Source of the DNA: an uncultured virus (IMG/VR IMGVR_UViG_3300034072_000446)
Lineage: Duplodnaviria; Heunggongvirae; Uroviricota; Caudoviricetes
DNA: 64,000 nucleotides
Reading direction: 5' to 3' (one strand)
IMG/VR virus record: IMGVR_UViG_3300034072_000446
Shown one piece after another: positions 14,721-57,492 of the stretch. Position 1 is the first letter of the stretch; the number at the start of each line of letters is the position of its first letter. Position numbers and translations under genes: made by a program. The notes beneath the pieces were generated by a model. That model had not been told where the DNA came from and made no database searches. It saw only the letters and a program-made list of their open reading frames with translations.

Positions 14721-15320
14721 ATGCACAAGACTCCACACGGCGGCGAGTGCTGCGGCATTTGGCATATTCACGGCATGGGGTATGGACCAACTGAAAATGA
14801 AGGAAGTCCCCAAAATCCTGTTACAAAGGAAGCACGACTTCGTGAATTGATTGACTCGCTTGATTTTCAGCGAACGTATGATGAAGACGACATTGACGAT
14901 GATGCCCCGATTTACAACAATGGTCGTGTCAAGGAAGTCGTGCTTGCTGACTACCAGCTTGCCGGCTGGCAAGACAAGCTTATTGAGATGGGATTCAAGA
15001 AGGTTGCTTCGTTCCTGAACAGTAACTCTGAGAATATTTGCCATGTCTTCTATCACCATCCTGATCTCACCCTGTATGGGAACGAGCAGCAACCGGGACG
15101 TCCGCAGATTCGTGAAGTTGAAGTGCCTGTTCGTATGCCGATTGAACGCTCGGCTGTGCTGGTGGAATACTTCCCGAATTTCCGCGTAGGTGGTCGGGGA
15201 CGCCCGTTTTCCTCGCTTCGAGAGGTGCGTGAACATGCCCCCTTGGTCCGACGGATTGATCGGCGAACTGTCTTCAATGACGGAACTGTTGAATGGGAGT
15301 ACAATGTTCGTGCAAATTAA
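14721..15320 (+). CDS. Hypothetical protein
   Basis: 199 aa, GGAG RBS. Confidence 0.75.
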   Translation: MHKTPHGGECCGIWHIHGMGYGPTENEGSPQNPVTKEARLRELIDSLDFQRTYDEDDIDDDAPIYNNGRVKEVVLADYQLAGWQDKLIEMGFKKVASFLNSNSENICHVFYHHPDLTLYGNEQQPGRPQIREVEVPVRMPIERSAVLVEYFPNFRVGGRGRPFSSLREVREHAPLVRRIDRRTVFNDGTVEWEYNVRAN

Positions 15321-16320
15321 CGACTTCTCTTATACACCTCTTCACTCTGAAGATAACATGGCGGCGGCTAAGGAGTGGCTTGTAGAGGCTATCTCTGATA
15401 AAGCTTTTACCAGCACCGCCAACTTTGCTTTTATCAACGCTGATAGCAAAGTTCTTTCGTATTGTGGGGAAGCCTGTCATAACTCAATGGGTTGTTCAGG
15501 AACTTACCAGAAAACTTCCGTTCTTGTAGCAACTGAAGCGTATCTTCATCAGAAGAATAGGCGAGACGATTACAAATACTGTCGATACGACAATGATTAC
15601 AGATTTATACGATACGATAAATCTGCCGAACTTATGATGCCATTCTTTGAGTGGGTGGTTTATGAGTCTGTGTATGGCAGGTTTATTCTTAATCGTGATG
15701 ATCGTGAATCAGTAGAGACTGGTTTCATTGTCTCCTCTGCCGTGCCTGCATCTATTATGCAGTCTATTATGATTCTTAGCAGACACTTCTATGAAGTCTG
15801 CCCAGAATCGTTCGAGGCGTTTAATCGTCTTCGTAGTATGGGTGTGCCCGGTTCTGTTGCTTATGTGGTAAGCTTTAACACGGCTTATGGAAGCAACACG
15901 GACCACGGGCCTATCGACATTAAGAAACCTGTGACCGGCAAATGGGGACACAGGTTGTTTGCTATTCCTGCAACTACAAAGGAACTGCATAACTTTATCA
16001 CAGGCAATGCCATTGGGCTCGATCAGACTGATCGGGCATACTGTGATCACCCATCTACGCGTGGCACAAGCACCTTGTTTTGCAATCGTAATACCGGGGG
16101 CCAGCCGCCATTCACTAAGCAACTGATTATGAATGATGCACCCTTTGCAGAAATGCTGCGGAAGTATCGTGGTGGAAATACGGGCACATCTATCATCAAT
16201 CCGTTTGTTCGCCACGATGGCCGAACTCCTGCCCCGACTGACGTTACTTACGAAGAATTGTATAACGTCATCATCCCTTATCTGTATGAACGAGGAGATT
16301 TCAAAGATGCGATCCACTGA
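15304..16320 (+). CDS. Hypothetical protein
   Basis: Long ORF in the operon; start uncertain (15304 or 15358). Confidence 0.7.
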   Translation: MFVQINDFSYTPLHSEDNMAAAKEWLVEAISDKAFTSTANFAFINADSKVLSYCGEACHNSMGCSGTYQKTSVLVATEAYLHQKNRRDDYKYCRYDNDYRFIRYDKSAELMMPFFEWVVYESVYGRFILNRDDRESVETGFIVSSAVPASIMQSIMILSRHFYEVCPESFEAFNRLRSMGVPGSVAYVVSFNTAYGSNTDHGPIDIKKPVTGKWGHRLFAIPATTKELHNFITGNAIGLDQTDRAYCDHPSTRGTSTLFCNRNTGGQPPFTKQLIMNDAPFAEMLRKYRGGNTGTSIINPFVRHDGRTPAPTDVTYEELYNVIIPYLYERGDFKDAIH

Positions 16321-16519
16321 TAGCCGGTCTACGGCGACCGACAATCCTATGGACGGATGGAATGACAATCAGGTTGCCGACGCTATGCGGCAGACCTTGA
16401 AGACCTTGATTGAGCTTAGAAATAAGCTTGGTAAAAGAGGCTATGACGTAACACTCGATAGCCACCCAACCAATTATATTCCAACTCGCGTAACTGCACG
16501 AAAGACGGTGATTCTCTAA
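16307..16519 (+). CDS. Hypothetical protein
   Basis: GAGGAG RBS; stop overlaps the next ATG. Confidence 0.6.
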   Translation: MRSTDSRSTATDNPMDGWNDNQVADAMRQTLKTLIELRNKLGKRGYDVTLDSHPTNYIPTRVTARKTVIL

Positions 16520-17277
16520 TGTCCGCAATGACTTCAATCTCTAAGAACTACACTAGCCGTGAAATGCCCGAATGCAAGGGTATGAAGGCTTTTGTTCTTC
16601 CGGGTGCCTTCTATGGCGCATGTGTCGCTCTCATGGCCGAGGCCGGCTTTGGCAAGGCAAACACTGTCGAAGATGCAGACGTCGTTGTCTTCATCGGCGG
16701 TGAAGATATCAACCCCAAGCTTTACGACGCCAAGGCACATCGTTCATCTTTCTGGACTGACGACCGAGACTTCCAAGAGGAGTTCTTCTATCGCAAGGCC
16801 CAGAGGCTAAACAAGGTGTGTTTCGGTATCTGCCGCGGCGCACAGTTCCTTCATGCGATGAATGGCGGCAAGCTCTGGCAGAACGTCAATAATCATGGCG
16901 GACCTGATCATGTTATCTATGACATTGACGATGATGTGTATGTGACGGCTACGTCTCTGCATCACCAGATGTTGCAGTTCAACAAGGATATGGAAGTCAT
17001 TGCTTGCACGAAGGAGCAGGTTGCTACCAAGTTTGAAGAAGCTGATTTGGTTGTCCATGTTGACAAGGAAACCGATGACGCTGCTGTTGAACTTGAGATC
17101 GAAGCAGGTTGCTACGCACTGACGCAATGCTTTTTCGTACAAGGCCATCCTGAAATCGGCAATGAGCAGTATCGTTCGTGGACCATGAACAAGCTCTTTA
17201 ACCTGATGTTGGAATGGGGAGCTAAGGATCGTATTGCCGATGAGCCTTACGACGATAGCGAAGGAGTTGCAGCATGA
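16519..17277 (+). CDS. Class I glutamine amidotransferase / peptidase C26-like
   Basis: GGEDINP..Y, FGICRGAQ nucleophile elbow, SLHHQ and VQGHPE motifs. Confidence 0.9.
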   Translation: MSAMTSISKNYTSREMPECKGMKAFVLPGAFYGACVALMAEAGFGKANTVEDADVVVFIGGEDINPKLYDAKAHRSSFWTDDRDFQEEFFYRKAQRLNKVCFGICRGAQFLHAMNGGKLWQNVNNHGGPDHVIYDIDDDVYVTATSLHHQMLQFNKDMEVIACTKEQVATKFEEADLVVHVDKETDDAAVELEIEAGCYALTQCFFVQGHPEIGNEQYRSWTMNKLFNLMLEWGAKDRIADEPYDDSEGVAA

Positions 17278-17360: not shown

Positions 17361-17444
17361 AAGCATTGTTTAAGAGGGTTGTTATAGATAATAGTTAAAG
17401 ACTATTGTTTATTACAATCTTCTTAAACAACCCTTCTATAAGAG

Positions 17445-17473
17445 ATTATATCATCTCTTGTACGAATTGTCAA
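17445..17473 (-). promoter_or_regulatory. Consensus sigma70 promoter antisense to the early operon
   Basis: TTGACA-N17-TATAAT with extended TG on the minus strand. Confidence 0.8.
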
Positions 17474-17485
17474 GGAAAAAATGAC

Positions 17486-17860
17486 ATGCCAAAAGTTACA
17501 CGGGTGAATGTCTGCTTCTCTACTATTTCAGTAAGAAGGGCCAACGGCATTCGCTTCGATGATGGGTCAACTTTGGAAGACTTTCATGATAGCGAGTGCT
17601 GTGAACATCACTACTTAGATTTCTCAGCCATCTCCCTTGAAGACTTCGACGGATTGGAGTTTGATCTGTCGTCAGAAGATTTCTTTGAGAGAGTGCCTGA
17701 CTACGGTATCCGGCTTGTACCTACTAACGGCCACCCGGTTAGCATTCCGGGGTATGGTTACAACAACGGGTACTACTCAAGTAACCTGTCGTTGATTCTT
17801 ACAACACCTGATGGCAAGAAAACTTTCGACATCTCTGAATGCCAAGAGTGGAAGGACTAA
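17486..17860 (+). CDS. Hypothetical phage protein
   Basis: HDSECCEHHYLDF and GYGYNNGYYS motifs. Confidence 0.75.
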   Translation: MPKVTRVNVCFSTISVRRANGIRFDDGSTLEDFHDSECCEHHYLDFSAISLEDFDGLEFDLSSEDFFERVPDYGIRLVPTNGHPVSIPGYGYNNGYYSSNLSLILTTPDGKKTFDISECQEWKD

Positions 17861-17865
17861 TACTA

Positions 17866-19245
17866 ATGTGTGGAATTATAGGCGTAGCTGGCAAGATCGA
17901 CAACAAGCTGCTCAATGCATTCAAGGGTATGCTTGTTGTCAATCAACTTCGAGGCACTGATTCAACTGGTGTCATTCGTGTCAATTCAGCGGGTGGTTAC
18001 AAGTACAAGAAGTCTCTTGGCACTCCTAACTATCTTATGGAGACCAAGTTCTTTGACCGTGAGATTGATATTCACGGAGCCAAGGCGCTGATTGGCCATT
18101 GTCGAGCCAAGACTATTGGCGACAACATTGTTGCTAACGCTCACCCCTTTGAGCATGGTAACATTATTGGCGTTCATAATGGCACTCTTCAGGGCCATTA
18201 CACCATGGAGCGTGCTCGTCAGTTTGACGTAGATAGTGACTGGCTGTATTGGCACATTAGCGAATATGGTCTTAAGGACACCATCAGCCAGTTGGACAAC
18301 ACCGGTGCATGGGCGCTGGTCTATTGGGATAACAAGGAACGCACCCTTAACTTCCTCCGCAATGAGCGTCGTCCTCTTTACTTTGCTCATACAAAGGACC
18401 AGAAGGCTATGCTGTGGGCAAGTGAGCCGTGGTTCTTCTCGGCGGCTACTCGTATTGGTGTTGAACTCCATAAGGATGATGCTGGCAAATCGTTCTTTGA
18501 ACTTCCCATCGAGACACATCTATCATTCACCATCGACGCATACAAGGATAAGCCCTCGGAAATCTTTACCCTTAAGGTAGAGAACGATGTTAAAGGTGAG
18601 GTTAGAAGCTACTCGGGAAACGTGACACACCTGTATGGAAGTGGTGGCAGGTATGGTAGCAGCATCGGGGGTTCAGTGCCCAGCCCTTTCGTGGACAAGG
18701 ACCTTCTCGACGACAATCTCGACGACATAGGAACGTCACGCCCCCGCCAACTCCCAGCAACCACGCAGACTCCGGGCGCTGCGACACATACAGCTTCTAC
18801 CGTCGACAAATCGCAGAAGTCTTCACAACAAAATACGGGTTCCTCGACGGTATCGACAAGTTCGACAAATGGGCAGCGTCCAAAGCTCTCATTACCATCG
18901 TCGAGTTCCAAAAGCTGTCAGCAGGAAAACAGCGGAAGCACTGCAAGAAAGTGCAACGATTGTTCGGAGAATTGCGAAAAGCCGAAGGTGTCCTTTCGCA
19001 CAGTGTCCGGAATACCGTTCATCACGGATAATAAGACTAAGACTGAGTTCTCAGAGCAGCGTTTCGAACAGCTCACGGGAGCAGTCTGCACCTTCTGTAA
19101 GTCACCTGTTGGGGATTTGGATGAAGTCCATGAAATCTTTATTCATTCGAGTGATCGAAAGTTTGACAAGGAGTATGTGACTTTCATTTGTCGTACGTGT
19201 GTTGAACCAAACCCGGCACTTGTTGTTGCCACAATGATCAATTGA
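17866..19245 (+). CDS. Class II (Ntn) glutamine amidotransferase with S/T-rich linker and C-terminal Cys domain
   Basis: MCGIIG start, RGTDSTG, GHCRAKT, NAHPF, GVHNGT and VDSD motifs; CTFC/CRTC near the C-terminus. Confidence 0.9.
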   Translation: MCGIIGVAGKIDNKLLNAFKGMLVVNQLRGTDSTGVIRVNSAGGYKYKKSLGTPNYLMETKFFDREIDIHGAKALIGHCRAKTIGDNIVANAHPFEHGNIIGVHNGTLQGHYTMERARQFDVDSDWLYWHISEYGLKDTISQLDNTGAWALVYWDNKERTLNFLRNERRPLYFAHTKDQKAMLWASEPWFFSAATRIGVELHKDDAGKSFFELPIETHLSFTIDAYKDKPSEIFTLKVENDVKGEVRSYSGNVTHLYGSGGRYGSSIGGSVPSPFVDKDLLDDNLDDIGTSRPRQLPATTQTPGAATHTASTVDKSQKSSQQNTGSSTVSTSSTNGQRPKLSLPSSSSKSCQQENSGSTARKCNDCSENCEKPKVSFRTVSGIPFITDNKTKTEFSEQRFEQLTGAVCTFCKSPVGDLDEVHEIFIHSSDRKFDKEYVTFICRTCVEPNPALVVATMIN

Positions 19246-19257
19246 GGAGTATAATTA

Positions 19258-19473
19258 ATGTTTGTTGCAGGTTTTCGTATCACCTTTCCCGGACCTTTCG
19301 GTAATCTATACCATCACGGGGCTTGTGCAACCGCAGATAAGCTTAAGAAGGGCGCTAAGATTCAAGTAATGGATGCAAAAGGAAATGTTTCCCCGTATCC
19401 TGCTGTAGTTCACTCTAGCGGTGTTGCCGCACGTTCTGATTATGCGTTTAAGTTTGTTGGGGAGTTCAATTAA
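19258..19473 (+). CDS. Hypothetical protein
   Basis: GAGGAG RBS; coupled to the next gene. Confidence 0.65.
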   Translation: MFVAGFRITFPGPFGNLYHHGACATADKLKKGAKIQVMDAKGNVSPYPAVVHSSGVAARSDYAFKFVGEFN

Positions 19474-20486
19474 TGTTTACTATTGGTTGCGATCCTGAAA
19501 TCTTTCTGGTTGACGCCCGCACTAGCAAGCCTGTCAGTGCATACGGTGTAGTCAAGGGAACTAAGCGCGAGCCATTTAAGGTTCCTGCTGGTGCCTATCA
19601 GGTCGATGGAATGGCTCTTGAATTTAATACTGATCCTGTTCCTGCGACTGGGCAGTTCCCAATGTTTGACAAGAACATTGTCTCTGTCATGAAGAAGCTG
19701 AAGGAAGACGTTAAGGCTAACGGGTTCAAGACTGTTCGCTTTAACATTGCCCCTGTTCAGGACTTTGGTGAAGACCTTATGGCTGAGCAGCCGAAGGAAG
19801 CTAAGGAACTTGGGTGCGATCCTGATTGGAATGCTTACACCAAGGAACCTAATCCGCGGCCTGACGGCGATGTTACCTTCCGTACGGCCAGCGGGCATAT
19901 CCACGTAGGATGGGGTGCAGATATTCCTGTAGATCACCCCGATCATATCGAAATTTGTACAGGCTTCATTAAGAAGCTTGATATGACTGTCGGTATGTTC
20001 ATGACGCTGATTGACACTGATTCTCGTCGTCGTGAACTCTACGGCAAGGCTGGCGCATTCCGTCCGAAGCCTTACGGTGTTGAATATCGAACCCCGTCAA
20101 ACGTTTGGCTGACTCACAAGAACCGTCGTCGTATTATCTATGACCTTGTGAATCTTGCTACGTGGTTGAATATGCAGAGTGACCGGACTGTTAAACTGGC
20201 AATAGTAGGTCTGCCATATCTTAATTATGGCAATTGGTCTGCTAATCCTTACAGGTTTATGGACGATATTTCAGACTTGGATACTTTTATCCAGACTATT
20301 ATCAACACGGGTGATACGGAGAAGGCTAATCAGGTTCTTCGGAACATTCTGAATTATTGTTATAGTTCTCACGGCGCTACCCGAAGGCTGCTAAACGCTG
20401 AGCTTAAGCGGATGGCAGGAAAGGAAGAACCTACTCATGCTCATATTGTTGAGCGCGAAACCAAGAAGGGAACCAAGCGTGCTTAA
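19473..20486 (+). CDS. phiEco32-like COOH-NH2 ligase type 2
   Basis: IGCDPEIFL, QVDGMALEFN, LGCDPD.NAY, GHIHVG, RRELYGKAGAFRPKPYGVEYRTPSN motifs. Confidence 0.9.
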   Translation: MFTIGCDPEIFLVDARTSKPVSAYGVVKGTKREPFKVPAGAYQVDGMALEFNTDPVPATGQFPMFDKNIVSVMKKLKEDVKANGFKTVRFNIAPVQDFGEDLMAEQPKEAKELGCDPDWNAYTKEPNPRPDGDVTFRTASGHIHVGWGADIPVDHPDHIEICTGFIKKLDMTVGMFMTLIDTDSRRRELYGKAGAFRPKPYGVEYRTPSNVWLTHKNRRRIIYDLVNLATWLNMQSDRTVKLAIVGLPYLNYGNWSANPYRFMDDISDLDTFIQTIINTGDTEKANQVLRNILNYCYSSHGATRRLLNAELKRMAGKEEPTHAHIVERETKKGTKRA

Positions 20487-21142: not shown

Positions 21143-22618
21143 ATGACTGCGTTCATGGAAGAGTACGAAAAGGTTAAGGCTCCGCATGTCGGTATTCCTT
21201 CTGTCGTAATGAACGAACCTGTTGTGGCCATTAACGGCCTTGGTGAAATCGGACTTGAGTTCGAGATTGAAGGCGAAAATCTTCCTTCGTCCGGAAAGCT
21301 GGCCCGTGTAGTGGGCAAGACTACTGGTTCGCAGTGGACTAGCAAGTCAGACGGTTCCCTTCGTGGTGAATCTCTTGAGTATGTCCTCAGCCGACCTTGC
21401 AATATTGACGAAGTAGACGCGATGGTCGAGGGTCTTTACAAGGCCTTTGTCGACAATGGAACAGAACTTAAGCTTTCAAATCGCTGCTCGACCCACGTAC
21501 ACGTCAACATGGCCGGTGCAAAAGTTAATGATATTACTTCTGCTATCGCTCTTTGGACCGCTTTCGAGGAGCCGTTGACTCTTTGGGCAGGAGAAGAGCG
21601 AGTTAATAACCACTTCTGCCTTGGTGCTAAGGATTGCAATGCAGGCACTGTGTCCGCATGGCGTAGCTTCCTTCGGTCAGGTCGTCGGGATTTCAATGAC
21701 AATCTCAAGTATAGTGCATTGAACATTCTTACGCTGTATCGCTTTGGCTCGCTTGAATACCGAGTAATGAACGGCACTGAGGATGCACAGCGTGCTATCG
21801 ATTGGACTAAGTTTGTTCATAGTCTTACTCGCTACGCTAGTGACAAGTTCGCTAATCCTGCCACGATGGCTTACAGCATGTCTGAGAAGGGCGGTCGTGA
21901 AATCTTCATGGAGATTTGTGAGAAGGCTGGTGTATCGCCTGACTTTGTAACTGGCGTTATTGACACCGTACCTGATATCAATACGGCTGTCATGTGCGGA
22001 TTCCGTCGAGCGCAACCTATTGTAGCAGGGTTCCCTTGGCACGATTGGTATGAAGAGTGCAAGAAGGAATACATCGCTGATCCTTTTGGCAAGTCTAAAA
22101 AGAAGACGGCACGACGAGCCTTTGAAGACTTTGTGATCGCCGATGACTTTGCCGCTATAGCTCCTGCACCTGCGTACAGGCTGCGTCCTCTCTTCGCTGA
22201 AGCGGTTCCGGTTGCTGACGTTGACGTTGCTCGTCCTGATGCCCCCGGTGAGCCTGATCGTCCTCGCATTGTCCCTCGTAATTACTACTGGAACGGCGAG
22301 TATTGGTGCAATCCTGACTATGACCCGGAAGCATTTAACATTAACCTGCCTGACGCACAAGTTGAGTACACAATGTGCCCTGCTGCTCTGCCGATTAGTG
22401 CCGGTGTTGTTAACTCAAATGGGTTACATTTCTACGATAATACTAGTATGCGAGTAGCCCGTGCAATTATCGTTAAGATTGACCGTCGAGGCACTATGAT
22501 TCAGGTACGTGCAAACAAGCGCCTTATGGTTGGGGGGCGTACAGACCTTTCTAGGGCATGGTGGTATAACATTCGTGATGGTCGTTTCAATGGCGACAAT
22601 ATTGCATTCATTCATTGA
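21143..22618 (+). CDS. Amidoligase (glutamine-synthetase-like COOH-NH2 ligase) with C-terminal extension
   Basis: IGLEFEIEG, DGSL...EYV, STHVHVN, KYSALN and GSLEYR motifs. Confidence 0.9.
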   Translation: MTAFMEEYEKVKAPHVGIPSVVMNEPVVAINGLGEIGLEFEIEGENLPSSGKLARVVGKTTGSQWTSKSDGSLRGESLEYVLSRPCNIDEVDAMVEGLYKAFVDNGTELKLSNRCSTHVHVNMAGAKVNDITSAIALWTAFEEPLTLWAGEERVNNHFCLGAKDCNAGTVSAWRSFLRSGRRDFNDNLKYSALNILTLYRFGSLEYRVMNGTEDAQRAIDWTKFVHSLTRYASDKFANPATMAYSMSEKGGREIFMEICEKAGVSPDFVTGVIDTVPDINTAVMCGFRRAQPIVAGFPWHDWYEECKKEYIADPFGKSKKKTARRAFEDFVIADDFAAIAPAPAYRLRPLFAEAVPVADVDVARPDAPGEPDRPRIVPRNYYWNGEYWCNPDYDPEAFNINLPDAQVEYTMCPAALPISAGVVNSNGLHFYDNTSMRVARAIIVKIDRRGTMIQVRANKRLMVGGRTDLSRAWWYNIRDGRFNGDNIAFIH

Positions 22619-22632
22619 GGTAAGGAACTAAC

Positions 22633-23385
22633 ATGCGTATTCGAGTTCTTCCATATCGTCAGGGCAGCCGCTCTGCTCGTGCTCTTGCTGACGCTCTTGG
22701 TGGCAAGGTCCTTCGTCTTGAGGGTTCGCGGTTTCGACCGCGGCCTACAGATGTAATCATTAACTGGGGTAATACTAATCCTTACGCTGGCCCTATGATC
22801 ATGTTTAACGAGCCTGAGTCTATCCGAAATGTTAGTAACAAGCTTACCTTCTTTCAAAGGATGCAGGAGCTTGCGCCTGATGTTATCCCACCATTCTGGA
22901 CGAACAAAGAGGATATTCCTGATGAAGACTTTCCTATTGTCTGCCGGACTGTTCTTGCTGGTCATTCCGGCGAAGGAATTGTTATTGCTAATACTCGGGA
23001 TGAACTAGTCGATTGTTCCCTGTATGTTAAGTATATCAAGAAGCAAGACGAATATCGTATCCATGTAGGAGTTCTTAATGATGGTGGCACATCTATCATC
23101 AGCCAGCAACGCAAAGCCCGTCGTGCCGACGTGGACGATCCAAACTGGCAAATCCGAAATCATGCCAACGGGTTTGTGTTCGTGCGACAAAACGTTCAGC
23201 CCCCTACCCTAGCACTGGACGTGGCACAGCGAGCAATGCTTGCATCAGGCCTTGACTTCGGAGCAGTGGACGTAATCTGGAATGAGCGTCAGCAGCGTGC
23301 TTACGTGCTAGAGATTAACTCAGCTCCCGGTCTCGAAGGGACTACTATTGATGATTACGTCAGGTATTTCGGAAGGCAAATCTGA
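22633..23385 (+). CDS. ATP-grasp ligase (RimK/YheCD-like)
   Basis: INWG, NKL, EYRIHV, IRNHANGF, GLDFGAVDVI and VLEINSAPG motifs. Confidence 0.9.
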   Translation: MRIRVLPYRQGSRSARALADALGGKVLRLEGSRFRPRPTDVIINWGNTNPYAGPMIMFNEPESIRNVSNKLTFFQRMQELAPDVIPPFWTNKEDIPDEDFPIVCRTVLAGHSGEGIVIANTRDELVDCSLYVKYIKKQDEYRIHVGVLNDGGTSIISQQRKARRADVDDPNWQIRNHANGFVFVRQNVQPPTLALDVAQRAMLASGLDFGAVDVIWNERQQRAYVLEINSAPGLEGTTIDDYVRYFGRQI

Positions 23386-44975: not shown

Positions 44976-46943
44976 CTACTTCGCTATCCACCCGGCGCTG
45001 CCAGTGCCGCTTTCCTTGACGTACAGTGTGGTTGTCGCCCCGCCCGAAGTATCGGTATAGAGCGATCCTACAGGCGCGGTGACATTACCATTCGGGCTTC
45101 CTGCGCCACTCGTCCAAATGGGGGCCCCTGAGCCGGGGCGAAACTCTTTTGAATACGCCCGATTAAACCTATTTGTCGAGCGGCCAAGGCCAATAACATC
45201 GTCGGTTACAGGATAAAGCGCATTCAAAACCGGAGATAGGCGAAGATATTCCACCATTGCTCCGCCAGTATTCAAAAAGATAGCAAGGCGGTCATTGTTT
45301 CCACCATCTTGGGCCGCTGCAATCCGCGCGGCAGTGCGCGCCGTGCCGCCCCCTGCTGGAGTTTGGATTTCAAAACCACCGCCGCGACCATCGGAGGCAT
45401 TGCCAAAAATTTTGGCAATAACAGGATAGTCGAAGGTTCCACTGGTAGGTCTTTCGGAAGTCAGGATATTGGTGACGCGCAAAGCGTCCATTTTGCTGAT
45501 ACCCGGACTAATTATGATAGTATTTGATCCAGTGTCAGTCATGCCGGGCCCCGGTGTTACGCCAAGCATGACCGTGTTAAATCCAGAGTTTACGATATTC
45601 CCTCCGACATTTCCTTCATTCTGTTCGCCAGCATAAATCGTTGTATAACGCGCTCCGATATTGGTGCCGCCAGTATTTACGATGTTGATGCCAGCCCCGG
45701 TGTTGGTTTGTGGGAGAAAGTTCTCAATGGAATTATACCAGCCACCATTTATCTTAATACCATCACCGCCGTTGCTTGTGGCGTCAATGTGCTTAATTAG
45801 GCCATTGTTGCAGTTTGCGCCAAAAGACGTGTTGTTGCGATAAAATTCATCATCGACATGATAGCCATGACGACCGTTTTCGCGGAGAAATATGTTTTCG
45901 TGAAAAAATTGATTACAGTTCAATTGAACGCTATCGCCAACGCGAATGCCATCCTGCCCCATTTTGTGCGAGGATACGCGAAGCAGGATCGAGCGCCCGC
46001 CGCGCACATGGATGCCGTCACCAGTATTGCCGGTTTGCCCGATAAACCCACATTCCATGACACCAGCCCCAAGCGCATTGAGGACCAACACCGCGCCGGT
46101 CATAGTGCTTTTTTTGATGATCTGAGTCGCGGCGGTTACTGATGGAAGCGGTGAGCAACCTACGCCGAGCAAAATAACGGGTTTAGAAAAAACCACGCCC
46201 GAACCCCACAGGTAGGTTCCTTGGGGCGCATAAATGGTGCCGCCCGTTTCTGGTAGCGCATCATGGGCCGCCTGAAAGGCTGGCGCATCGTCTGCGGCAC
46301 CATCCCCAACCGCGCCGAAGTCCTTGACGCTGACGGTCTCCCCCAACTTATCCTGTACCGTACGTGCAACTGCGCCTGTGCCAGACTGGAGAAAGCCGAT
46401 CCGCGCAGCACCGCCCTGCCCAGACAGGTCGGACCGCAACACGCCGTCAAGCGCATCTGCATAGATCGGCTCCCCAGCGGAATTCCATGCCAGGAACTTT
46501 CCGTGTCGCCCGGCCGATGGCGGCAGCAGCGCGGCCGTTTCGCCATCGGGAAGCCGTAGCGCGCGTGATTGCACATCGGCCAGGTCAACCGCCTGCTCCT
46601 GCACCGCCATCATCGTGCGATCCAGCGCCAGCTCGTGGCTCCTTGCCGGGAACGCGCCCGATGTCGGATACTGCGTCGGCTGCGCCCGGGGTGTAACCCG
46701 CTTGATCCGCACCCGCTGCCCGGCGGCCGGCGGGGTCACCATGGTCACCGTTCCCCCGGCATCCGTGCTCCCGCCAGTCGCGCTGTAATGCACCCCGGCC
46801 GCCAGCACGGCTGCCACGCCCGCGCTGGAAAGCAGCTCCACTCTCAGGCTCGATGGATCGAGATAACGGAACCGCGCCGCAAACGCCGTCGTCACCCCGT
46901 CGCCGTCGTAAAGCTCGATCGGGTCCTTGGCTGCAACCGTCAT
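44976..46943 (-). CDS. Tail fibre/tailspike: T7 gp17-like anchor plus beta-helix depolymerase
   Basis: YDGDGVTTAF...HELALDRTMM anchor, [14 protein letters not shown] beta-helix cap, C-terminal GAGSPNG.VTAPVGSLY..LYVKESGTG..GW. Confidence 0.88.
   Translation of the reverse strand: MTVAAKDPIELYDGDGVTTAFAARFRYLDPSSLRVELLSSAGVAAVLAAGVHYSATGGSTDAGGTVTMVTPPAAGQRVRIKRVTPRAQPTQYPTSGAFPARSHELALDRTMMAVQEQAVDLADVQSRALRLPDGETAALLPPSAGRHGKFLAWNSAGEPIYADALDGVLRSDLSGQGGAARIGFLQSGTGAVARTVQDKLGETVSVKDFGAVGDGAADDAPAFQAAHDALPETGGTIYAPQGTYLWGSGVVFSKPVILLGVGCSPLPSVTAATQIIKKSTMTGAVLVLNALGAGVMECGFIGQTGNTGDGIHVRGGRSILLRVSSHKMGQDGIRVGDSVQLNCNQFFHENIFLRENGRHGYHVDDEFYRNNTSFGANCNNGLIKHIDATSNGGDGIKINGGWYNSIENFLPQTNTGAGINIVNTGGTNIGARYTTIYAGEQNEGNVGGNIVNSGFNTVMLGVTPGPGMTDTGSNTIIISPGISKMDALRVTNILTSERPTSGTFDYPVIAKIFGNASDGRGGGFEIQTPAGGGTARTAARIAAAQDGGNNDRLAIFLNTGGAMVEYLRLSPVLNALYPVTDDVIGLGRSTNRFNRAYSKEFRPGSGAPIWTSGAGSPNGNVTAPVGSLYTDTSGGATTTLYVKESGTGSAGWIAK
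46115..46374 (+). repeat. Copy 2 of the shared tailspike segment
   Basis: Matches 1-260 at an offset of 46114. Confidence 0.95.
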
Positions 46944-49381
46944 TGCACGATATCTCCCTGTTGCGGTTCAACTGCGTTGGAAAAGTCGGGCGCACGCGCC
47001 GGCGCGACGTCGCCCGGTGCCCACCAGAAATCGGTGCCCTGTTCGCGCGCGAAGTCCGCCATGCGCTGCCAGGACTGGTCATAGTTGGGATCGATCGCGC
47101 GCTGGATCTGGTCGGTCACCAGTCGATCGAACGCGGTCTTGGCATACCACAGCGAGCCGCCGGGAAGCTGGCTGCGGATGAATTTGAGGGTATCGCGCTG
47201 CGGATTGGCAGACTTGGGGATGTTCGCCAGCTTCTGCGCATCCGAGATGATCGGGCCTGCCAGCGTTTCGGCAAATCCGTTACCATAGGCATTTGTACTG
47301 CTCTGCAGGAAGTCGCCGAAGATGCCAAACCCGCCGCCCTGGAGCATCGCCGCGCCCCAAAATTCGGGCGTGGTGGAATCGCGCGGATCCTTGCCATTGG
47401 CCAACGCCTTCAATTGGAGCGCCAGACCCCCGAGAAGCGTTGTTGTGATGACCAATCCGGCCGCATAGCGCGCTGCATTTCCAGCGCTCATTTCCATGAT
47501 CCGGCGCGATTGCATCAGCATGACTGTGACGCCGAAGCTTTTGAACAGGAAAGCACTGCGAATTAATTCGCCGGCCACCGTACCTTTCGGCGCCACCGCA
47601 CTGATTCCGGCCTTCACCCGAAGGTCCGGCACCGGCACCGCGTGATCGACTTCGCGGGCGATCATTTCCAATAAGCGATCGCCCAGCTGCTTGTTCGGCA
47701 GATCGGTGGGCGACAGCCATTCCACGCCCCGGTCAATCGTTACCGGCGAAGTGCGGATTTCATCCCAATCCGCCGCGGTAAAGCCATAGCGATCGAGCGC
47801 GCCTCGCAAGGCCGGATCCAGCTCGCCAAGCGCCTTGCCGCGATGTTCAGTCAGCGTGCCCAGAAACTCCATGCCGAATGCCCAGCGCCCAGCTTGTGTC
47901 CACCGCGCAAGGCCCGAAATTTTCATTACGCCCTCGGCCAACCGTCGCGAAACCTCGCCGGTCATCTCCTCGCCCATGTAACGGTTCTGCGTTGCCGTGC
48001 GGCTCGACCACTCCTCCGCGATCAGGCCCCGGCGCACCGCCATGCGCTGATCCTCTAAAGCACCAGGCTTGAGGTATTTGACGTAATCATTGAGAAGGTT
48101 TGCCACCCGAAGGCCGTTGAATGCTCGGGTAACGGCCTGATTGCCAGCGTCCGAAACTGCGGACAGAGGCGCACTTCCCAGCTTTTGCGCCGTTTGGATC
48201 GACCGGATCGACGACATAACCAGAGCAAGGTTGCGGTTCTCCGCCCGGTTGCTCGCGCCGGTAAGTTCATTCCACATCCGGTCGATCGCGCCGATCTGTG
48301 GCCGCGCGCGGTCCACCGCCTTGCTGTTGGGCGCGGCGTCCGTCTCCGCATCCTTGCGGATCAGATCTTTCATCCACTCGATCGTGTTTCCGGGGTTCGG
48401 GCCCAGCACCTCGAGCATGGCCACATCGCGCGACATGCCATCGATGTGGCCCATCATCGCGTCGAACGCGGATCCCGCGCCGAACTGGTCGGCATAGGTC
48501 ATCCAGTCATCGGCACTCTTGAAGATCAGGAACCGGGCATCGCCGCGCCGGTTGGCCAGCGCCCCGCTGCCCATCCCGCCGGGCGCGCGATCCTTCCAGC
48601 CATCGCTGCGGATCGTCTCGAACACGTCGCGCAAAGCCAGCTCAAGGCTCTGTTGCGTGAACGGCCGCCCGGTGCGCTGATCGATCATCTTGCCCAAGTC
48701 GAGCCGTGGCAGGATCTCCGCGCGCCATGCCTCAAAACCGGCGGCACGCACGGCGCGGCTGTCGTGGGTCTGGGGCAGGCCCCACCGCTCGAGCTTGCCG
48801 ATATCGCCGCCGGCGGCGTTGAAGCGCTGGCGCAGCATTTCAGCCGTACGCAACCAGGCGTCGGCCAACTCGCGCGCGTTCGCGTTGCCGGTATTTTCGC
48901 CAAAGGCTTCGCGCACGATATCGGCCAGCTGCGCCTTGTTGCGCACTTCACCCAGCAGGTTGCTGGAATGCTCGGACAGGATCCGGTCCATGATTGCGTG
49001 CGCCCGGCCGCGCACCGCCCGCCAGCGGCCCTCGACGTTGGAATAGGTGGCGCGGCCGTCGCCTCCCAGCATGGCAGGTCCCGCGCGCGGGTCGATGGGA
49101 CCATCCCCGCCGCCGCCATTATAACCGCGAAGATCTGCCTCGATGCGTTGGCGCGCCCGGACCGTCTGCGCGGCAAGGAACTTCTTGCGCGCCGCCTCAG
49201 CCGCCATGGCTTTCAGCGCGGCATCTGTCGCCATGGCATCGGCGGCCTGGTCGCCAAACTGCCGCCGGAAATCCTGTTGCAGTTCGTCGAACAGCGCACC
49301 GGCGCGATCGGCCTGCTCCTGTGTCAGCTTGCCTTCGGAAACAAGGCCAGGAAGGCAGGGCTTCATGCTCATAGCAAGCAC
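46940..49381 (-). CDS. Internal virion / ejection protein
   Basis: 813-aa helical protein ending AMLQGGGFGIFGDFL; located before the tail fibre. Confidence 0.75.
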   Translation of the reverse strand: MLAMSMKPCLPGLVSEGKLTQEQADRAGALFDELQQDFRRQFGDQAADAMATDAALKAMAAEAARKKFLAAQTVRARQRIEADLRGYNGGGGDGPIDPRAGPAMLGGDGRATYSNVEGRWRAVRGRAHAIMDRILSEHSSNLLGEVRNKAQLADIVREAFGENTGNANARELADAWLRTAEMLRQRFNAAGGDIGKLERWGLPQTHDSRAVRAAGFEAWRAEILPRLDLGKMIDQRTGRPFTQQSLELALRDVFETIRSDGWKDRAPGGMGSGALANRRGDARFLIFKSADDWMTYADQFGAGSAFDAMMGHIDGMSRDVAMLEVLGPNPGNTIEWMKDLIRKDAETDAAPNSKAVDRARPQIGAIDRMWNELTGASNRAENRNLALVMSSIRSIQTAQKLGSAPLSAVSDAGNQAVTRAFNGLRVANLLNDYVKYLKPGALEDQRMAVRRGLIAEEWSSRTATQNRYMGEEMTGEVSRRLAEGVMKISGLARWTQAGRWAFGMEFLGTLTEHRGKALGELDPALRGALDRYGFTAADWDEIRTSPVTIDRGVEWLSPTDLPNKQLGDRLLEMIAREVDHAVPVPDLRVKAGISAVAPKGTVAGELIRSAFLFKSFGVTVMLMQSRRIMEMSAGNAARYAAGLVITTTLLGGLALQLKALANGKDPRDSTTPEFWGAAMLQGGGFGIFGDFLQSSTNAYGNGFAETLAGPIISDAQKLANIPKSANPQRDTLKFIRSQLPGGSLWYAKTAFDRLVTDQIQRAIDPNYDQSWQRMADFAREQGTDFWWAPGDVAPARAPDFSNAVEPQQGDIVQ

Positions 49382-52305
49382 CCCTTGATCGCCTCGATCG
49401 CCGCTTCGTCGCTGGCGATTTCGTCCTCGATTTCCTTCAAGGTTCGCGCGCCCTTGCCGTCGCCCAGGTCGAACGTGGGTTGGTCGGCCGCATCGAACAG
49501 CGGCGTGCCCATCGTGCCGTCCTGCTCGGCTTTGGCGCGCATTGGGGCCTCGGCCCCAAGCTGTGCCTTCTGGCGATCGAGCGCGGCAATGTTGGGATCG
49601 ACCTCCGCCCGCACGTCGTGCCAGGCGCTGTCCGCTACTTGGGCAATGCCGTCTCCGGCGGGATCGTCAAAGGCGGCGTGCGCCTGTTCGTCGATCAGCG
49701 GCGAGCCAAGCCCCGCCGCCTCGATCTCGTCTAGCTCTTTCGGGCTCGGTCGACCATTGGCTGTACCAGATCCAGCGTCCGTTGCGCCCGCGCGCGCAGA
49801 TCCGGCGTCAACCGCTGATCCTGTGCCGCTTTCTGCAGTCGCTCCAGCTTCACTGGCGAGATCATAGTAAGGATCCTCGATCTCGAGGTAAGCCGCCTCG
49901 AGCACGTCGTCGATATCGCGGTTTACCATCTCAAGCACGTAGGGTGCAAGCTCGTCCGCACTTGGCAGGTCGGCTTCCCGCCAAGGCGGCAGGGTGTCGG
50001 TCCCGTCTGCCAGCAGCTGCTCGAGCCGAGCAACATCACCGCTCAGCATTGGCGCGGTACCAGCGACGTCGGCCGCCTCGTTCCAACGGTCATAGCGCTG
50101 CCAGAACCGGTCCTGCTCGGCCACGTCCGCCGCCACGTCCGGGGCATCTTCCTTGGGCCGTGCAAAGTCGGCCGCCGTGGCCTTGGGCTCGGGCGCCTGG
50201 TCCGCGAAGCTGTAGCGCTTTTCCTTCTTGCGGATCGCGTCGTCCAGCCAGGCGATCAGTTCCGTATCGGTCGGTCGCGGCGTTGACTCCGGCGGCCCGA
50301 AGTAACCTGCATCCCATAGCAGATCGGCCATGTTGTCGAGGCCTTGCCCCGTGGGGCGCAGCAGCGGCCCCGATTGCGGCACGAAGTAATTCAGGTTGCC
50401 GCTGTTGCGCAGGTCATGGCCCTTGCTGTCGATCTTGTCGGCAAGCCTCGGATCCAGCCCGTCGTAGGAAATGCCGCCGCGCCGTGCGATGAACGTCAGG
50501 GCATCTTCCGGCCCCCGCGCCATCCTGCGACGATAGATCCCGCTCTTGGTCAGGGTCAGCCGGCCTTCGTCGACCAGCTTCTGCAGGATCGGCTGCAGGC
50601 TGTCTTCATCCGTGCCCAGCTCGCGCGCCAGCCCCGGCATGTCGTTCAGCGAGATCTTGCGATCATCCACGATCGCGCGCATCGCGGTGAACAGCCCATC
50701 GTTCACCACTTCCGGCCGCAAGGGTGGTTGCGGGGCGATGTCTTCCACCGCGACCGGCTCGGGCATGTCAACCAGCGGTCGCTCGGCGTCGAGCGCGGCA
50801 GGGCGCACCGTCGCCATATCGCCCACCGGCGCGATCGCGCCCGGCTCGCTGCCCATCCGCTCGGCCGCCCAACGGCGAAAGCTGCCTGCCGTCATCCCCT
50901 CGAGGTGCGGGTTGGCTCGCATCACTTCCGGCGTCAGCAGCTGCGCCAGCGGTGTGTCGGCGGCCGCACGGAAGATCTTGCCAGCGCCGCCGGTGCCCAT
51001 GTGGTGCACCACGTAAAGGTTACCGGGACTTGCCTCGATGCCATTGCGCTGCAACCAGGCCGCGTTGTCTTCCGTAAAGGCACGCATGACGCGTTCCTGC
51101 ACGTCGCCCTGGTTCTTGCGCGCAAGGATCCGCTCGTCACTCAGGCCGGTGTTGGGGAAGGCCTTGCGATAGTAGGTGACGAACGTGTCATCGATAAACC
51201 CGTATCGTCCCGCCGCGCTCGATGTCTTGCTGCGCGCGCTGTCGTTGCCACCCGACTCTTGGGCCCGCGCCGCCGCCATGTAGCGCTCGATCGAATTGCC
51301 CAGGCCTTCGGCGATCGGCTGTGTCACCGGCGCCGGCGTGATCGGCAGGCGATCGCCCGCCGTCATGCTGTCCATCACCTCGCGGATCCGCGCGAAGTGC
51401 GCGTCCAGCCCCTCATGTGTGTTCACGAAGGGATTGGCCGACGCCACTTCCTCGTGCCGGGTCAATACATTCCACGCGGCCGCAACGTCCGGCGGCATCA
51501 GGTGCTTGGGGCTGGCCTCTTTCAGCGCCTGTGCCGCGCGATAATCGAACGGCGCGGCCTTTTCGTAAAGCTTTGCGCCAACCTTAGGACCATAGGCGAT
51601 CGCGCCGGCAAAGGCGGCATTCGCCGCGCCACCGATAAGCATATCGTTCGCCAGTTGGTCGGCGCTGTAGCCTTCCCCCATGTTGACTCGAGCATGGACG
51701 CGCGCCGGCGTTTGCAACGCCGTGCCCAGCGCACCGGCATAGAACTGCGCGATCAGGAATTCGGAGGCTGTCTTCGTCCCGCCACCCAGCAGCAGCTGCG
51801 GCAGGTTCTCGGCCGAACCGGCCGTGGAAATGCCGAACGCCAACATCGGCGCGATCTGGCTGCCAAAGCCCCCGCGCGCTGCCACGGCCATGTCCTTTGC
51901 GCGCTCGCCCTTGCGCGCATAGGCCCAAGTGTCGAACTCCGCTTGAGTCTTGGGAATGTCGGCGAAGGCGCGCGGGTTCAGGCGGCGCGCCTCTTCCACG
52001 TCGCGCCACAAAGCTCCGAACCGTTTTTCAAAATCGGTGCCCCAGTAACTCGTCCACTCCGGGTTGCGATAGCGGCTGCGCTTGCGACCCATTCCGACCA
52101 GCGCAGTCTCGAGATCGTCGTAGGCCTTGGCCCGGTTATTGAAGTTGCCGGCCTCGTCGTCGTCCAGGGCAAGCCGCCAGTTAGCCGCCGCGGCGTCCAG
52201 CCAGCTGACGGGACCGGTATTGACGGACTCGCTGTCGCTCGCCTGTCGTTGCGGCATGGTGCGGTCCTGGTCGAGCCGCGGCCGCATCGCCGCCAGAACG
52301 CTCAT
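49369..52305 (-). CDS. Internal virion protein with lysozyme/transglycosylase-like domain
   Basis: QESGGN..ARS.TSSAAGRYGFI..TF and NLYVVHHMG.GGA motifs. Confidence 0.78.
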   Translation of the reverse strand: MSVLAAMRPRLDQDRTMPQRQASDSESVNTGPVSWLDAAAANWRLALDDDEAGNFNNRAKAYDDLETALVGMGRKRSRYRNPEWTSYWGTDFEKRFGALWRDVEEARRLNPRAFADIPKTQAEFDTWAYARKGERAKDMAVAARGGFGSQIAPMLAFGISTAGSAENLPQLLLGGGTKTASEFLIAQFYAGALGTALQTPARVHARVNMGEGYSADQLANDMLIGGAANAAFAGAIAYGPKVGAKLYEKAAPFDYRAAQALKEASPKHLMPPDVAAAWNVLTRHEEVASANPFVNTHEGLDAHFARIREVMDSMTAGDRLPITPAPVTQPIAEGLGNSIERYMAAARAQESGGNDSARSKTSSAAGRYGFIDDTFVTYYRKAFPNTGLSDERILARKNQGDVQERVMRAFTEDNAAWLQRNGIEASPGNLYVVHHMGTGGAGKIFRAAADTPLAQLLTPEVMRANPHLEGMTAGSFRRWAAERMGSEPGAIAPVGDMATVRPAALDAERPLVDMPEPVAVEDIAPQPPLRPEVVNDGLFTAMRAIVDDRKISLNDMPGLARELGTDEDSLQPILQKLVDEGRLTLTKSGIYRRRMARGPEDALTFIARRGGISYDGLDPRLADKIDSKGHDLRNSGNLNYFVPQSGPLLRPTGQGLDNMADLLWDAGYFGPPESTPRPTDTELIAWLDDAIRKKEKRYSFADQAPEPKATAADFARPKEDAPDVAADVAEQDRFWQRYDRWNEAADVAGTAPMLSGDVARLEQLLADGTDTLPPWREADLPSADELAPYVLEMVNRDIDDVLEAAYLEIEDPYYDLASEAGATAESGTGSAVDAGSARAGATDAGSGTANGRPSPKELDEIEAAGLGSPLIDEQAHAAFDDPAGDGIAQVADSAWHDVRAEVDPNIAALDRQKAQLGAEAPMRAKAEQDGTMGTPLFDAADQPTFDLGDGKGARTLKEIEDEIASDEAAIEAIKGCLL

Positions 52306-54305
52306 TTTGCACCTCGGCGATAAACGCGGGTGACGTAGACTTGACCTTTTGCTGTCTTTACCAACGACCCGCCTGGGGTCTCCCAGCGATAGCGATCAGG
52401 AGCGATCCACACCGGGTAGGCATTGTTGAGGTTGTAGGGCGTCCCATCGAGATTGACCGGGCCTTCGCCGCGCTTGTCATCCATGCCGCGCTGCCGTGTG
52501 ACAAGGATCTGGAAGCTGCCATGATCCAGATCGTCGGGCAGGGCATAGGGTTGGCCACCGGCCCAATGGCCAATCCCGCCAAGATATCCGCCGTTCGGCT
52601 TGTAATACCCGCCAAGCGCGAGCGTCGCCGCATTGCGGATGTCGCCGGGCGTCAACGAATTTATGTTCCGCCCCTTTGACGCAAGCCACCCCGCCAGCCA
52701 TTGCTCGGAGATCTGCTTTACCGCGCTTGCTTCTTCAGGTCCGGCATTCCGCAGAGCAAAGTCGATTTCAGATCTGGCGATGCCCAGCAGCTGATGAGCA
52801 CGATCGCCGCCCGGAGCTTTGCGATCAGGCGTCAAGAATGTGCGATCTGCCGCCAGCTTCTCACGTCCCTCGAATACGGTCGCGCGCGCGAGTGGCCGGA
52901 TCAGGGACTCATGCCGGAAGCTGACATCGTTGGGCATGATCTGACGCGCCGCCACAGCCCGCTCAGCCGATGGCATGGCGTCCAGCCCTTTTAGCACTTC
53001 TCGCCGCCCGGCCGCGCCGCTGGTGACCCGCTCGCGCAACGGCACCAGCTCGTTGTCGGAAAACACCGGCACCGGGCGGCCTGTGGCTGCCGAGTATTGA
53101 CGCCGCCATTCCAGACGCTTTGCCACCGATTGCGGGTCTGCCGGGTCCAGCACAGGTGGAACGCTCGATCCCGTGCCATACTTGGCCGCATAGCCAACGG
53201 GATCGTTGTTGAAATCACTGTCCATCGCGCTGACCGCGCCACTGCGCGCGTATTGCAGCTCACGATCTTCCTGGTCGGTACGCTTTTCCTTGCCACTCAA
53301 GGCCGCAATGCGTTGCTCACGCTGCACCGGCGTCATCGCGCGATAGACTTTCGCGAAGGCATTGTTCGCCTTGATGCCGTCCAGCTCCAGCGCGGCTGAC
53401 GTATCCCCCATGGCCGCCGCGGCCTGTATCAGCTGGTCGATACGCGCCGGATCCACTTCCAGCCCTTGGCTGTCCGCCTCTTTCAGCGTTGCAATCTGCT
53501 CGCGGACCGCCGCCTTCTGCATGTTGGCTTCATGCTCGGCTTGCGCCTGCACGCGCCGGATCTCCACGTCGGCGCCGCTGCGCAGCTGCTCGAGCTGCTG
53601 TGGTTCGAGCACGTCGTTGAACGCGCCGGCGTCGATCAGCCCGCGCGCCACTGCGGGATTGTCGTCAATTCGCCCGTTGAGGAACGAAATCGCAAATTTC
53701 TGGTGTGTCTCGCGCTTCAGCTTGCGGCGCGTGTCCTCGTCCAGGTTAAGGCTGTCGATATAGGCTTCGGCCAGCGCGGACTCATCCTGGTACGCGTTCT
53801 GATCGGGCAGGGCGCGTACGCGGTTAGCGCCGATATCGGAATATACCTGTGCATCGTCCAGCGTCTTGGCAACGCGCTTGCCCTCCGCCCAAGTGCCTTC
53901 GCGCTCGAGGAGTGACGAACCGAACGCGATGAACTGCTGTTCGGCCTGGCGCTTCACGCTGTCTTCGGTCAGCCCGGCAAACAGGGTTTCGCGGCCTTTC
54001 TCATAGGCCTGCCGCATCGCCTCGGTATGCCCGACGCCGCCGGGTGCCGCACTGCTGCGCGTCGCCCGTACCGTCTCGTCCATGGAAAGACGGAACTCGG
54101 CAAAGCGCCGGGCAAAGTCCGTCGCCTCGGCATCGGCCGTCGCTGCCCGCTGGATCTTGTAATCGTTGATCTGGCCCTGATGGAAGACTTGCCCGGCCTC
54201 GCCGATCGAGCGGCCAAGCCCCGCGCCATAGGCCTCGGGCGAAACCTGCACGGCCACGTCCTGCGCCCGGGCTCCAACTTGACTGTCGTATCCGCGCGTC
54301 GCCAT
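52302..54305 (-). CDS. Internal virion protein
   Basis: 667-aa Ala/Gln-rich helical ORF, translationally coupled. Confidence 0.7.
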   Translation of the reverse strand: MATRGYDSQVGARAQDVAVQVSPEAYGAGLGRSIGEAGQVFHQGQINDYKIQRAATADAEATDFARRFAEFRLSMDETVRATRSSAAPGGVGHTEAMRQAYEKGRETLFAGLTEDSVKRQAEQQFIAFGSSLLEREGTWAEGKRVAKTLDDAQVYSDIGANRVRALPDQNAYQDESALAEAYIDSLNLDEDTRRKLKRETHQKFAISFLNGRIDDNPAVARGLIDAGAFNDVLEPQQLEQLRSGADVEIRRVQAQAEHEANMQKAAVREQIATLKEADSQGLEVDPARIDQLIQAAAAMGDTSAALELDGIKANNAFAKVYRAMTPVQREQRIAALSGKEKRTDQEDRELQYARSGAVSAMDSDFNNDPVGYAAKYGTGSSVPPVLDPADPQSVAKRLEWRRQYSAATGRPVPVFSDNELVPLRERVTSGAAGRREVLKGLDAMPSAERAVAARQIMPNDVSFRHESLIRPLARATVFEGREKLAADRTFLTPDRKAPGGDRAHQLLGIARSEIDFALRNAGPEEASAVKQISEQWLAGWLASKGRNINSLTPGDIRNAATLALGGYYKPNGGYLGGIGHWAGGQPYALPDDLDHGSFQILVTRQRGMDDKRGEGPVNLDGTPYNLNNAYPVWIAPDRYRWETPGGSLVKTAKGQVYVTRVYRRGAK

Positions 54306-57491: not shown

Positions 57492-57492
57492 G

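Follow-up and report, generated by a model that had tools for sequence, protein, structure and literature searches.

A class II glutamine amidotransferase gene in the DNA of an uncultured tailed virus very probably uses programmed -1 ribosomal frameshifting at a C_CCU_UUY heptamer, to judge from comparative sequence analysis, and would thereby yield a 388-aa product beside the 459-aa product of the unshifted frame. The gene lies within a 64,000-nucleotide stretch (IMG/VR record IMGVR_UViG_3300034072_000446), which we refer to in its whole length as the window. The gene and the domains of its unshifted product are arranged as follows:

17866..19245, + strand: class II (Ntn) glutamine amidotransferase gene (PF13522, phrog_4736, Foldseek), with a 0-frame product of 459 aa
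17866..18600, + strand: glutaminase (GATase II) domain, about residues 1 to 245, common to all predicted products (alignment, model, Foldseek)
18607..18975, + strand: 0-frame linker, residues 248 to 370, Gly-rich and then Ser/Thr-rich, disordered, overlying both -1 tails
18979..19203, + strand: 0-frame C-terminal Cys domain, CxxC...CxxC, about residues 372 to 446 (alignment, strain changes, model)

The enclosing 0-frame open reading frame spans 17839/17866-19245, and the protein starts with Met-Cys-Gly. It matches PF13522 (E 1.8e-14, 54 bits, with a cut-off of 27) and, among PHROGs, phrog_4736 (E 1e-56); its nearest solved fold by Foldseek is the GlmS glutaminase domain 1xff (E 8e-14), and R29, R80, N105, G106, and D123 are invariant in 32/32 homologues. 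The N-terminal Cys nucleophile and the conserved Arg, Asn-Gly, and Asp presumably play the same roles as in GlmS, and there is no synthase domain fused to the glutaminase in this gene. AlphaFold models the 0-frame product as folded over residues ~1 to 245, disordered from 248 to 370 (pLDDT <50), and folded again in the Cys domain at ~372 to 446. Among the 32 homologues (41 to 80% identity) the linker is variable, with Pro274-Phe275 invariant and Gly268-Gly269 nearly invariant, and Cys domain residues C408, C411, and C445 are also invariant; this domain is a probable zinc site (Cys4).

The amidotransferase gene is assigned by its sequence to a Zobellviridae-like podophage amidoligase cluster, the gene set and order of which match those of phages PA11, CW02, and CVT22 (Zobellviridae), and podophage hallmark genes are found in the window. 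The best cultured matches of the enzyme are to phages of the PA11/CW02/CVT22 type, at ~40% identity over the domain only. A role in cell wall modification against superinfection has been suggested for the cluster (Iyer et al. 2009, as cited in the available text of PMC10580990). The neighboring genes are:

16519..17277, + strand: peptidase C26 / class I amidotransferase-like gene
19473..20486, + strand: phiEco32-like COOH.NH2 ligase type 2
21143..22618, + strand: amidoligase-2 with invariant Pro314-Phe315, which serves as a negative control
22633..23385, + strand: RimK-like ATP-grasp ligase

Directly 5' of the amidotransferase gene, at 17405-17860, is a small DUF7448-like open reading frame for which tblastn gives no match in other loci of the clade. 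Elsewhere in the window, the GC content rises from ~47% to ~64% at about 45000-46000, beyond which head-tail adaptor, major head, and tail genes appear for a second time; the window thus looks like a junction of two distinct podophage genomes. We also note three antisense open reading frames of 560 to 659 codons (48185-49867, 50344-52323, and 55998-57968, all on the + strand) opposite high-GC phage structural genes, which are probably codon-bias shadows.

The elements of the putative main frameshift cassette lie in and over the linker:

18667..18671, + strand: SD-like GGGGG at Gly268-Gly269, 12 nt before the main heptamer
18684..18690, + strand: main slippery heptamer C_CCT_TTC (CCCTTTC), in register at Ser273-Pro274-Phe275
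18660..19031, + strand: overlapping -1 open frame of 123 codons, with stop TAA at 19029-19031
18768..18986, + strand: conserved four-helix basic domain in the -1 frame, model residues 1 to 73

The first-pass annotation of the window had described a 0 frame that turns Ser/Thr-rich after the amidotransferase domain, overlain by a -1 frame that is open from 18660 to its TAA and has no ATG, with C CCT TTC in frame at 18684-18690 and an SD-like GGGGG 12 nt upstream of it, and our analysis of the open reading frames in the window finds each of these as described; Ser and Thr make up 35 of the 113 residues of the 0-frame stretch under the main -1 tail, and this stretch is modelled as disordered. The heptamer codes for Pro-Phe in the 0 frame and the -1 frame alike. 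The two isoforms put forward at that time, one ending in the Cys domain and one in a basic helical tail of ~113 residues, are supported as predicted products of 459 and 388 aa, with the shifted one having a mass of ~43.8 kDa and 113 new residues after the shift (18690-19028). The helical tail has a pI of 10.6 in the window and is net positive in 30/33 relatives, and the AlphaFold model of the -1 domain consists of four helices with a pLDDT of ~96 over residues 1 to 73.

Relatives were collected from 160 loci, which gave 142 distinct genes, and 35 of these were chosen by similarity to the Cys domain of the window alone (34 at E<1e-3 and one at 1.2e-3). In every one of these, an in-frame C_CCT_TTY is present and the -1 frame stays open for at least 86 codons past it. 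Removal of genes that are >90% identical left 31, to which L043 and L072 were added by hand to give the 33 used below; L070 was left out of the statistics because its -1 peptide did not align, and the median identity is 39% among 34 relatives with L070 still included. Where a gene has two Pro-Phe pairs (five genes), the pair with the heptamer and the long frame was taken. A tree built from 117 enzyme domains alone is free of that choice, and it contains a clade of 29 genes (support 0.93), all 29 of which have the heptamer and the domain, with six further carriers of both falling outside the clade. We note that one locus, L166 (JAGWWT010000008.1), is a 46-kb contig with the cluster, the heptamer, and the -1 domain in a Patescibacteria MAG; this is probably a binned phage and not evidence for a host.

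The heptamer C_CCT_TTY is kept in 33/33 non-redundant relatives, where ~7 are expected from codon usage (the sum of per-gene probabilities), although this and the other counts overstate independence because the relatives share ancestry. The invariance of Pro-Phe does not count as evidence by itself, since other cluster proteins retain a similar motif but lack the heptamer, and two controls address the choice of codons. First, a Pro-Phe inside the enzyme domain takes the form of the heptamer in only 5/33 relatives. Second, the amidoligase Pro-Phe is equally invariant, and the heptamer is present at 11/44 of its sites (52 genes) and a long -1 frame at 0/44. By the PMC4066793 criterion, 29/33 relatives have an SD-like element, versus a background of 1139/7420 codons (15%), and four lack one; the element reads GGAGG instead of GGGGG in most relatives and in two strain contigs. 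Its first Gly codon is GGA or GGG in 26/27 cases versus 235/777 elsewhere, and the pairing minimum with the anti-SD lies 10 to 12 nt upstream of the heptamer in the relatives. The heptamer is unchanged in the three strain contigs that cover it, among the substitutions listed.

These elements resemble those of well-studied bacterial cases. In the available part of PMC4066793, H_HH.U_UU.Y heptamers are among the efficient E. coli -1 motifs and C_CC.U_UU.C is a high-level one, GGNGG at 6 to 17 nt upstream is a proven -1 stimulator, and a 3' stimulatory structure is optional in bacteria; the typical SD spacing for -1 shifts is 9 to 14 nt (PMC5009743, in the portion available). A search for conserved 3' RNA structure found no local hairpin signal within 40 to 100 nt across the 33 relatives (mean z 0.07 to 0.15, with 1/33 below -2), so that the efficiency of shifting may be low. 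With a heptamer, an SD-like element, and a startless -1 frame that appears to be under selection, the gene would belong with the SD-stimulated -1 shifts of the dnaX/IS type. We propose that the 16S anti-SD of the elongating ribosome would pair with the internal GGNGG 12 nt upstream, that the tRNA-Pro and tRNA-Phe on C_CCU_UUY would re-pair on CCC_UUU, and that a fraction of ribosomes would go on in the -1 frame. Unshifted ribosomes would make the 459-aa enzyme ending in the Cys4 (probable zinc) domain, and shifted ones the 388-aa enzyme, whose C-terminus would be a basic four-helix domain encoded over the 0-frame linker; an SD-preceded upstream site (see below) probably adds a form of ~264 aa with a short Trp-rich tail.

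Where translation enters the -1 frame bears on two alternatives to frameshifting. The open -1 frame starts 0 to 39 codons before the heptamer, and in the window its first GTG or TTG lies 89 codons past the heptamer. It could be a separate nested gene, translated unfused from its own non-standard start at the internal SD, and a strong GGAGG(AGAGGT) does sit upstream; gene callers have also annotated two stand-alone proteins (P0121 and P0122), both on contigs of ~1 kb. However, ATG, GTG, and TTG are all absent from the six most frequent -1 codons at every position between -12 and +3, a start codon between the upstream stop and codon 30 is found in only 9/33 relatives and at positions that do not correspond, and in the window none precedes codon 89. 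A nested gene would also leave the invariant C_CCT_TTY unexplained, and we regard it as very improbable. Because no start codon is shared and a -1 stop lies directly before the heptamer in five genes, in which the open frame begins at the heptamer itself, entry into the -1 frame must be at the heptamer. Transcriptional slippage, in which RNA polymerase inserts an extra base within the C/T run, would lead to an identical protein and to the same selection on both frames, and sequence comparison cannot fully separate it from ribosomal shifting. Nonetheless, the runs comprise only three C and three or four T residues, the heptamer is fixed in the register for tandem tRNAs with the SD-like element at a fixed distance, and the register is always the same at other sites even though their motifs differ (A_AAA_AAG, G_GGA_AAC, and A_AAT_TTT). 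We give slippage as little credence as the nested gene.

Several observations bear on whether the -1 frame is coding. The frame is open for 86 to 144 codons in 33/33 relatives, and when the 0-frame amino acids are held and synonymous codons redrawn, only 0.0015 of the 33 frames are expected to be open; for the window itself, the frame is open in 0/4000 such trials. Over the first 85 codons past the site in the 33 relatives there are 0 stops in 2805 codons of the -1 frame versus 110 in the +1 frame, and in the enzyme domain the -1 frame has 642 stops in 8344 codons (7.7%). The conservation of the heptamer and of the open -1 frame that was proposed as a check thus holds in 33/33 relatives. The -1 peptides are homologous and can be aligned across ~70 residues, and their identity exceeds that of the 0 frame over the same bases in 17/19 pairs, the other two being ties between identical pairs, with the caveat that some members recur among the pairs and that the -1 peptide was the basis of the alignment. 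Variation is greatest at the wobble base of the -1 frame, which coincides with the second position of the 0-frame codon. Among the strain changes listed in the overlap, 5/8 are silent in the -1 frame and 2/8 in frame 0, whereas those silent in frame 0 number 7/7 in the Cys domain and 16/23 upstream. Both C-termini are thus maintained, given the -1 conservation in the overlap and the 0-frame-silent changes in its flanks, and purifying selection is seen from these sequences to act on the Cys domain of the 0 frame as well as on the -1 domain.

A single product, with the open -1 frame as a by-product of the Ser/Thr-rich linker and Pro-Phe as a protein motif, is a further alternative. An invariant xPF does end the amidoligase domain and occurs in an upstream open reading frame, in neither case with the heptamer or a long frame, and Ser/Thr codons do yield hydrophobic -1 codons. 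The expected number of open frames given the fixed 0-frame amino acids, the better conservation of the -1 peptide and its confident fold, and the Pro-Phe codon choice of 33/33 versus 11/44 in the amidoligase control nonetheless leave this reading with even less to recommend it than slippage or a nested gene. The last alternative, two compensating indels introduced by assembly or sequencing, has a negligible chance of being right: although a protein with the helical domain in frame with the enzyme (P0123, see below) shows that indel versions exist in databases, contigs from four runs in four studies have no indel over 18400-19300, the same layout recurs in 33 relatives at a median identity of 39%, and the Cys domain in frame 0 and the -1 domain each bear the marks of purifying selection.

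The amidoligase Pro-Phe was considered as a second frameshift gene and was rejected, with the heptamer at 11/44 sites and long frames at 0/44. In this neighbor, [N/D]PF at 22082-22087 ends the folded part (invariant in 50/50), and it recurs near the end of the open reading frame at 15190-16320 and in the amidotransferase; it may be a short docking motif common to the cluster. The amidoligase stops 10 to 13 codons after Pro-Phe in some relatives (L014/L015 and L312; L315, L316, and L312), and in L315 and L316 it has C_CCT_TTC with a -1 tail of 43 to 56 codons, a possible local frameshift.

The helical domain is invisible to ORF callers, and the earlier annotation had remarked that the ORF track misses this frame. 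A profile search of 1.84 billion representative proteins finds only three matches (P0121, P0122, and P0123), the first two being the short stand-alone gene calls described above. No match to the -1 peptide is found among 5.8 billion proteins of 50 to 161 residues, nor as a called protein by tblastn of the phage collection, in which no cultured phage of the clade was found, and an Atlas features search returns only scores of 0.81 or below. A DNA-pattern scan for the SD-heptamer cassette gave mostly unrelated DNA among the matches listed and is left out of the counts. The domain from the window has no match in Pfam (other members have scattered weak ones only) or in PHROGs, and the best hit among PDB sequences has an E of 0.054. 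With the model as query, Foldseek gives none at E<=0.001, and VIA-align gives a best Z of 6.8, to generic helical bundles. P0123 (395 aa, from a single ENA contig) fuses the helical domain in frame to the enzyme (hhalign 97%) and was considered as an independent fusion, which we reject: the residues before its Pro-Phe match the -1 reading of the SD cassette, so its frame was apparently changed by an upstream indel, whether real or from assembly, and it lends weak support at best.

A second candidate site lies upstream of the first, ~23 codons before the main heptamer:

18595..18602, + strand: SD-like element GGTGAGGT, ending 12 nt before the upstream heptamer
18615..18621, + strand: upstream slippery heptamer G_GGA_AAC, in frame at Ser250-Gly251-Asn252
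18615..18659, + strand: -1 frame after the upstream site, a 14-codon Trp-rich tail ending in TAG at 18657-18659

The first-pass annotation had envisaged two products, and comparison supports both, but it had missed this upstream heptamer and hence a probable third, short product. In 23/33 relatives a heptamer lies in the stretch that separates the enzyme domain from the main site (null 5.5 +/- 2.0, with a maximum of 12 in 400 shuffles), and a stretch of equal length in the enzyme domain has one in 0/33. An SD-like element precedes 15 of the 23 upstream sites. Their tails contain 35 Trp versus 18.2 +/- 4.2 in the null, and Pro-Trp occurs in 9/23 tails versus 2.0 +/- 1.3, while the total length of the tails in the 23 genes is not above null. 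The motif of the upstream site varies between genes and is missing in 10/33, and the Gly-rich 0-frame stretch under these tails by itself yields Trp in the -1 frame. We nonetheless lean toward the upstream heptamer being a second -1 site that gives a short Trp-rich tail, with a good deal less assurance than for the main site. In one relative, L019, the -1 frame runs for 136 codons from an upstream A_AAA_AAG straight into the helical domain, such that either site could give the helical domain in that gene.

More distant relatives also show a signal in the linker. Among 83 distant genes without a match to the Cys domain, A_AAA_AAR or C_CCT_TTY occurs in the linker of 44 (null 11.9 +/- 2.7) and neither occurs in the other 39, and a heptamer with a -1 tail of at least 15 codons is present in 42/83 (null 4.4 +/- 1.9). 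The short -1 tails of distant relatives have a median of 25 aa, and Lys-Lys is encoded as A_AAA_AAG in 23/77 linker cases versus 1/79 domain cases. Isolates of Kuravirus, Grimontviridae, Bruynoghevirus, and the LUZ24 type have no clear site at the matching linker position, where only G_GGA_AAG and A_AAT_TTT are present in PA11 and no heptamer in CVT22. In none of 18 cultured-phage regions is a programmed shift annotated in this gene. In the cultured Pseudoalteromonas phage Slicky01 (OQ508958; L294:3000-3150) the amidotransferase ends right after A_AAA_AAG and an unannotated CxxC...CxxC domain lies in the -1 frame, an arrangement that could possibly be a sequencing error. Phage TL (NC_023583; L295:2001-3102) carries the amidotransferase as misc_features only and seems to lack the C-terminal part, because the N-terminal 255 aa are followed by a piece that resembles the end of the next LUZ24 gene.

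The proposed mechanism has several relatives among known systems. As in E. coli dnaX (tau/gamma) and IS911/IS3, an X_XXY_YYZ motif in register is preceded by an SD-like element at 9 to 14 nt (PMC5009743 and PMC4066793, in the parts available), and the dnaX/IS911 products likewise share an N-terminus. The motif is C_CCU_UUY here and A_AAA_AAG in dnaX and IS911, and a conserved 3' structure was not found here; moreover, the shifted product of dnaX is a truncation, whereas both frames here lead into conserved folded domains across 113 dual-coding codons. Tailed-phage -1 shifts that give two C-termini are described for lambda G/GT, T7 and T3 gene 10A/10B, and the capsid genes of phiEco32-like phages and Privateer (available portions of PMC5009743 and PMC7881722). 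As described there, those cases are in capsid, tail, and chaperone genes; the present one would be in the middle of an early metabolic enzyme gene, with the new domain wholly over the 0-frame linker and possibly two tandem sites. The gene set itself, comprising a GATase II, an amidoligase, a COOH.NH2 ligase, and an ATP-grasp protein, is that of the phiEco32-type cluster (Zobellviridae, Kuravirus, and Bruynoghevirus), but the helical domain has no match in the phage collection. The upstream site and the short tails of distant genes may be compared to the shifts in E. coli copA and H. neapolitanus csoS2, which follow an N-terminal module and release it from the rest; those are truncations, whereas the short tails here look selected (in Trp, in Pro-Trp, and, in the distant genes, in length above null). 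Flavivirus NS1' and arterivirus nsp2TF are also made by an internal shift into a wholly overlapping frame that supplies an alternative C-terminal part, and the heptamer C_CCU_UUU is the West Nile NS1' site. Those are eukaryotic RNA viruses with pseudoknot or protein stimulators, in contrast to a dsDNA phage that would rely on bacterial ribosomes and an SD.

What the alternative tails do is a matter for more cautious interpretation. The basic helical tail would suit an acidic partner, nucleic acid, or a membrane, and prediction of a complex between the helical domain, the enzyme domain, and both ligases gives a score of 0.01, which speaks neither for nor against an interaction. Tentatively, and somewhat short of even chances, the glutaminase may be given alternative docking or localization tails in a fixed ratio, for different partners or surfaces of the amide-ligase pathway. 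Alternatively, the enzyme could serve as carrier for the helical tail, which would itself be an effector that binds the host, or the tail could regulate enzyme activity. A broader picture, which we likewise offer as a conjecture that could readily prove wrong, is of a three-way tail switch (a Trp-rich anchor, a de novo overprinted helical domain, or a zinc domain, from two tandem SD-driven sites), of unrecognized family-wide linker frameshifting in the podophage pathway, and of a helical domain that arose in one clade as a -1 tail grew longer across the linker.

We find no report of a frameshift in this gene in the literature covered, subscription journals lying outside that coverage, and amidotransferases are not mentioned in the available portion of bioRxiv 10.1101/2025.10.02.679949. 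Phage frameshifts have so far been described in structural and assembly genes, as far as the portions of the sources at hand extend, and the present gene adds a candidate from metabolism, in an enzyme, with deep conservation. It would illustrate clearly how a dsDNA phage can write a folded domain over a disordered linker while the unshifted frame is still required. It also offers a directly testable C_CCU_UUY cassette that would be stimulated by an SD only, and a way into the amidoligase/ATP-grasp cluster, which is poorly understood. If frameshifting in the linker is indeed family-wide, many podophage annotations, including those of cultured phages, would be missing products.
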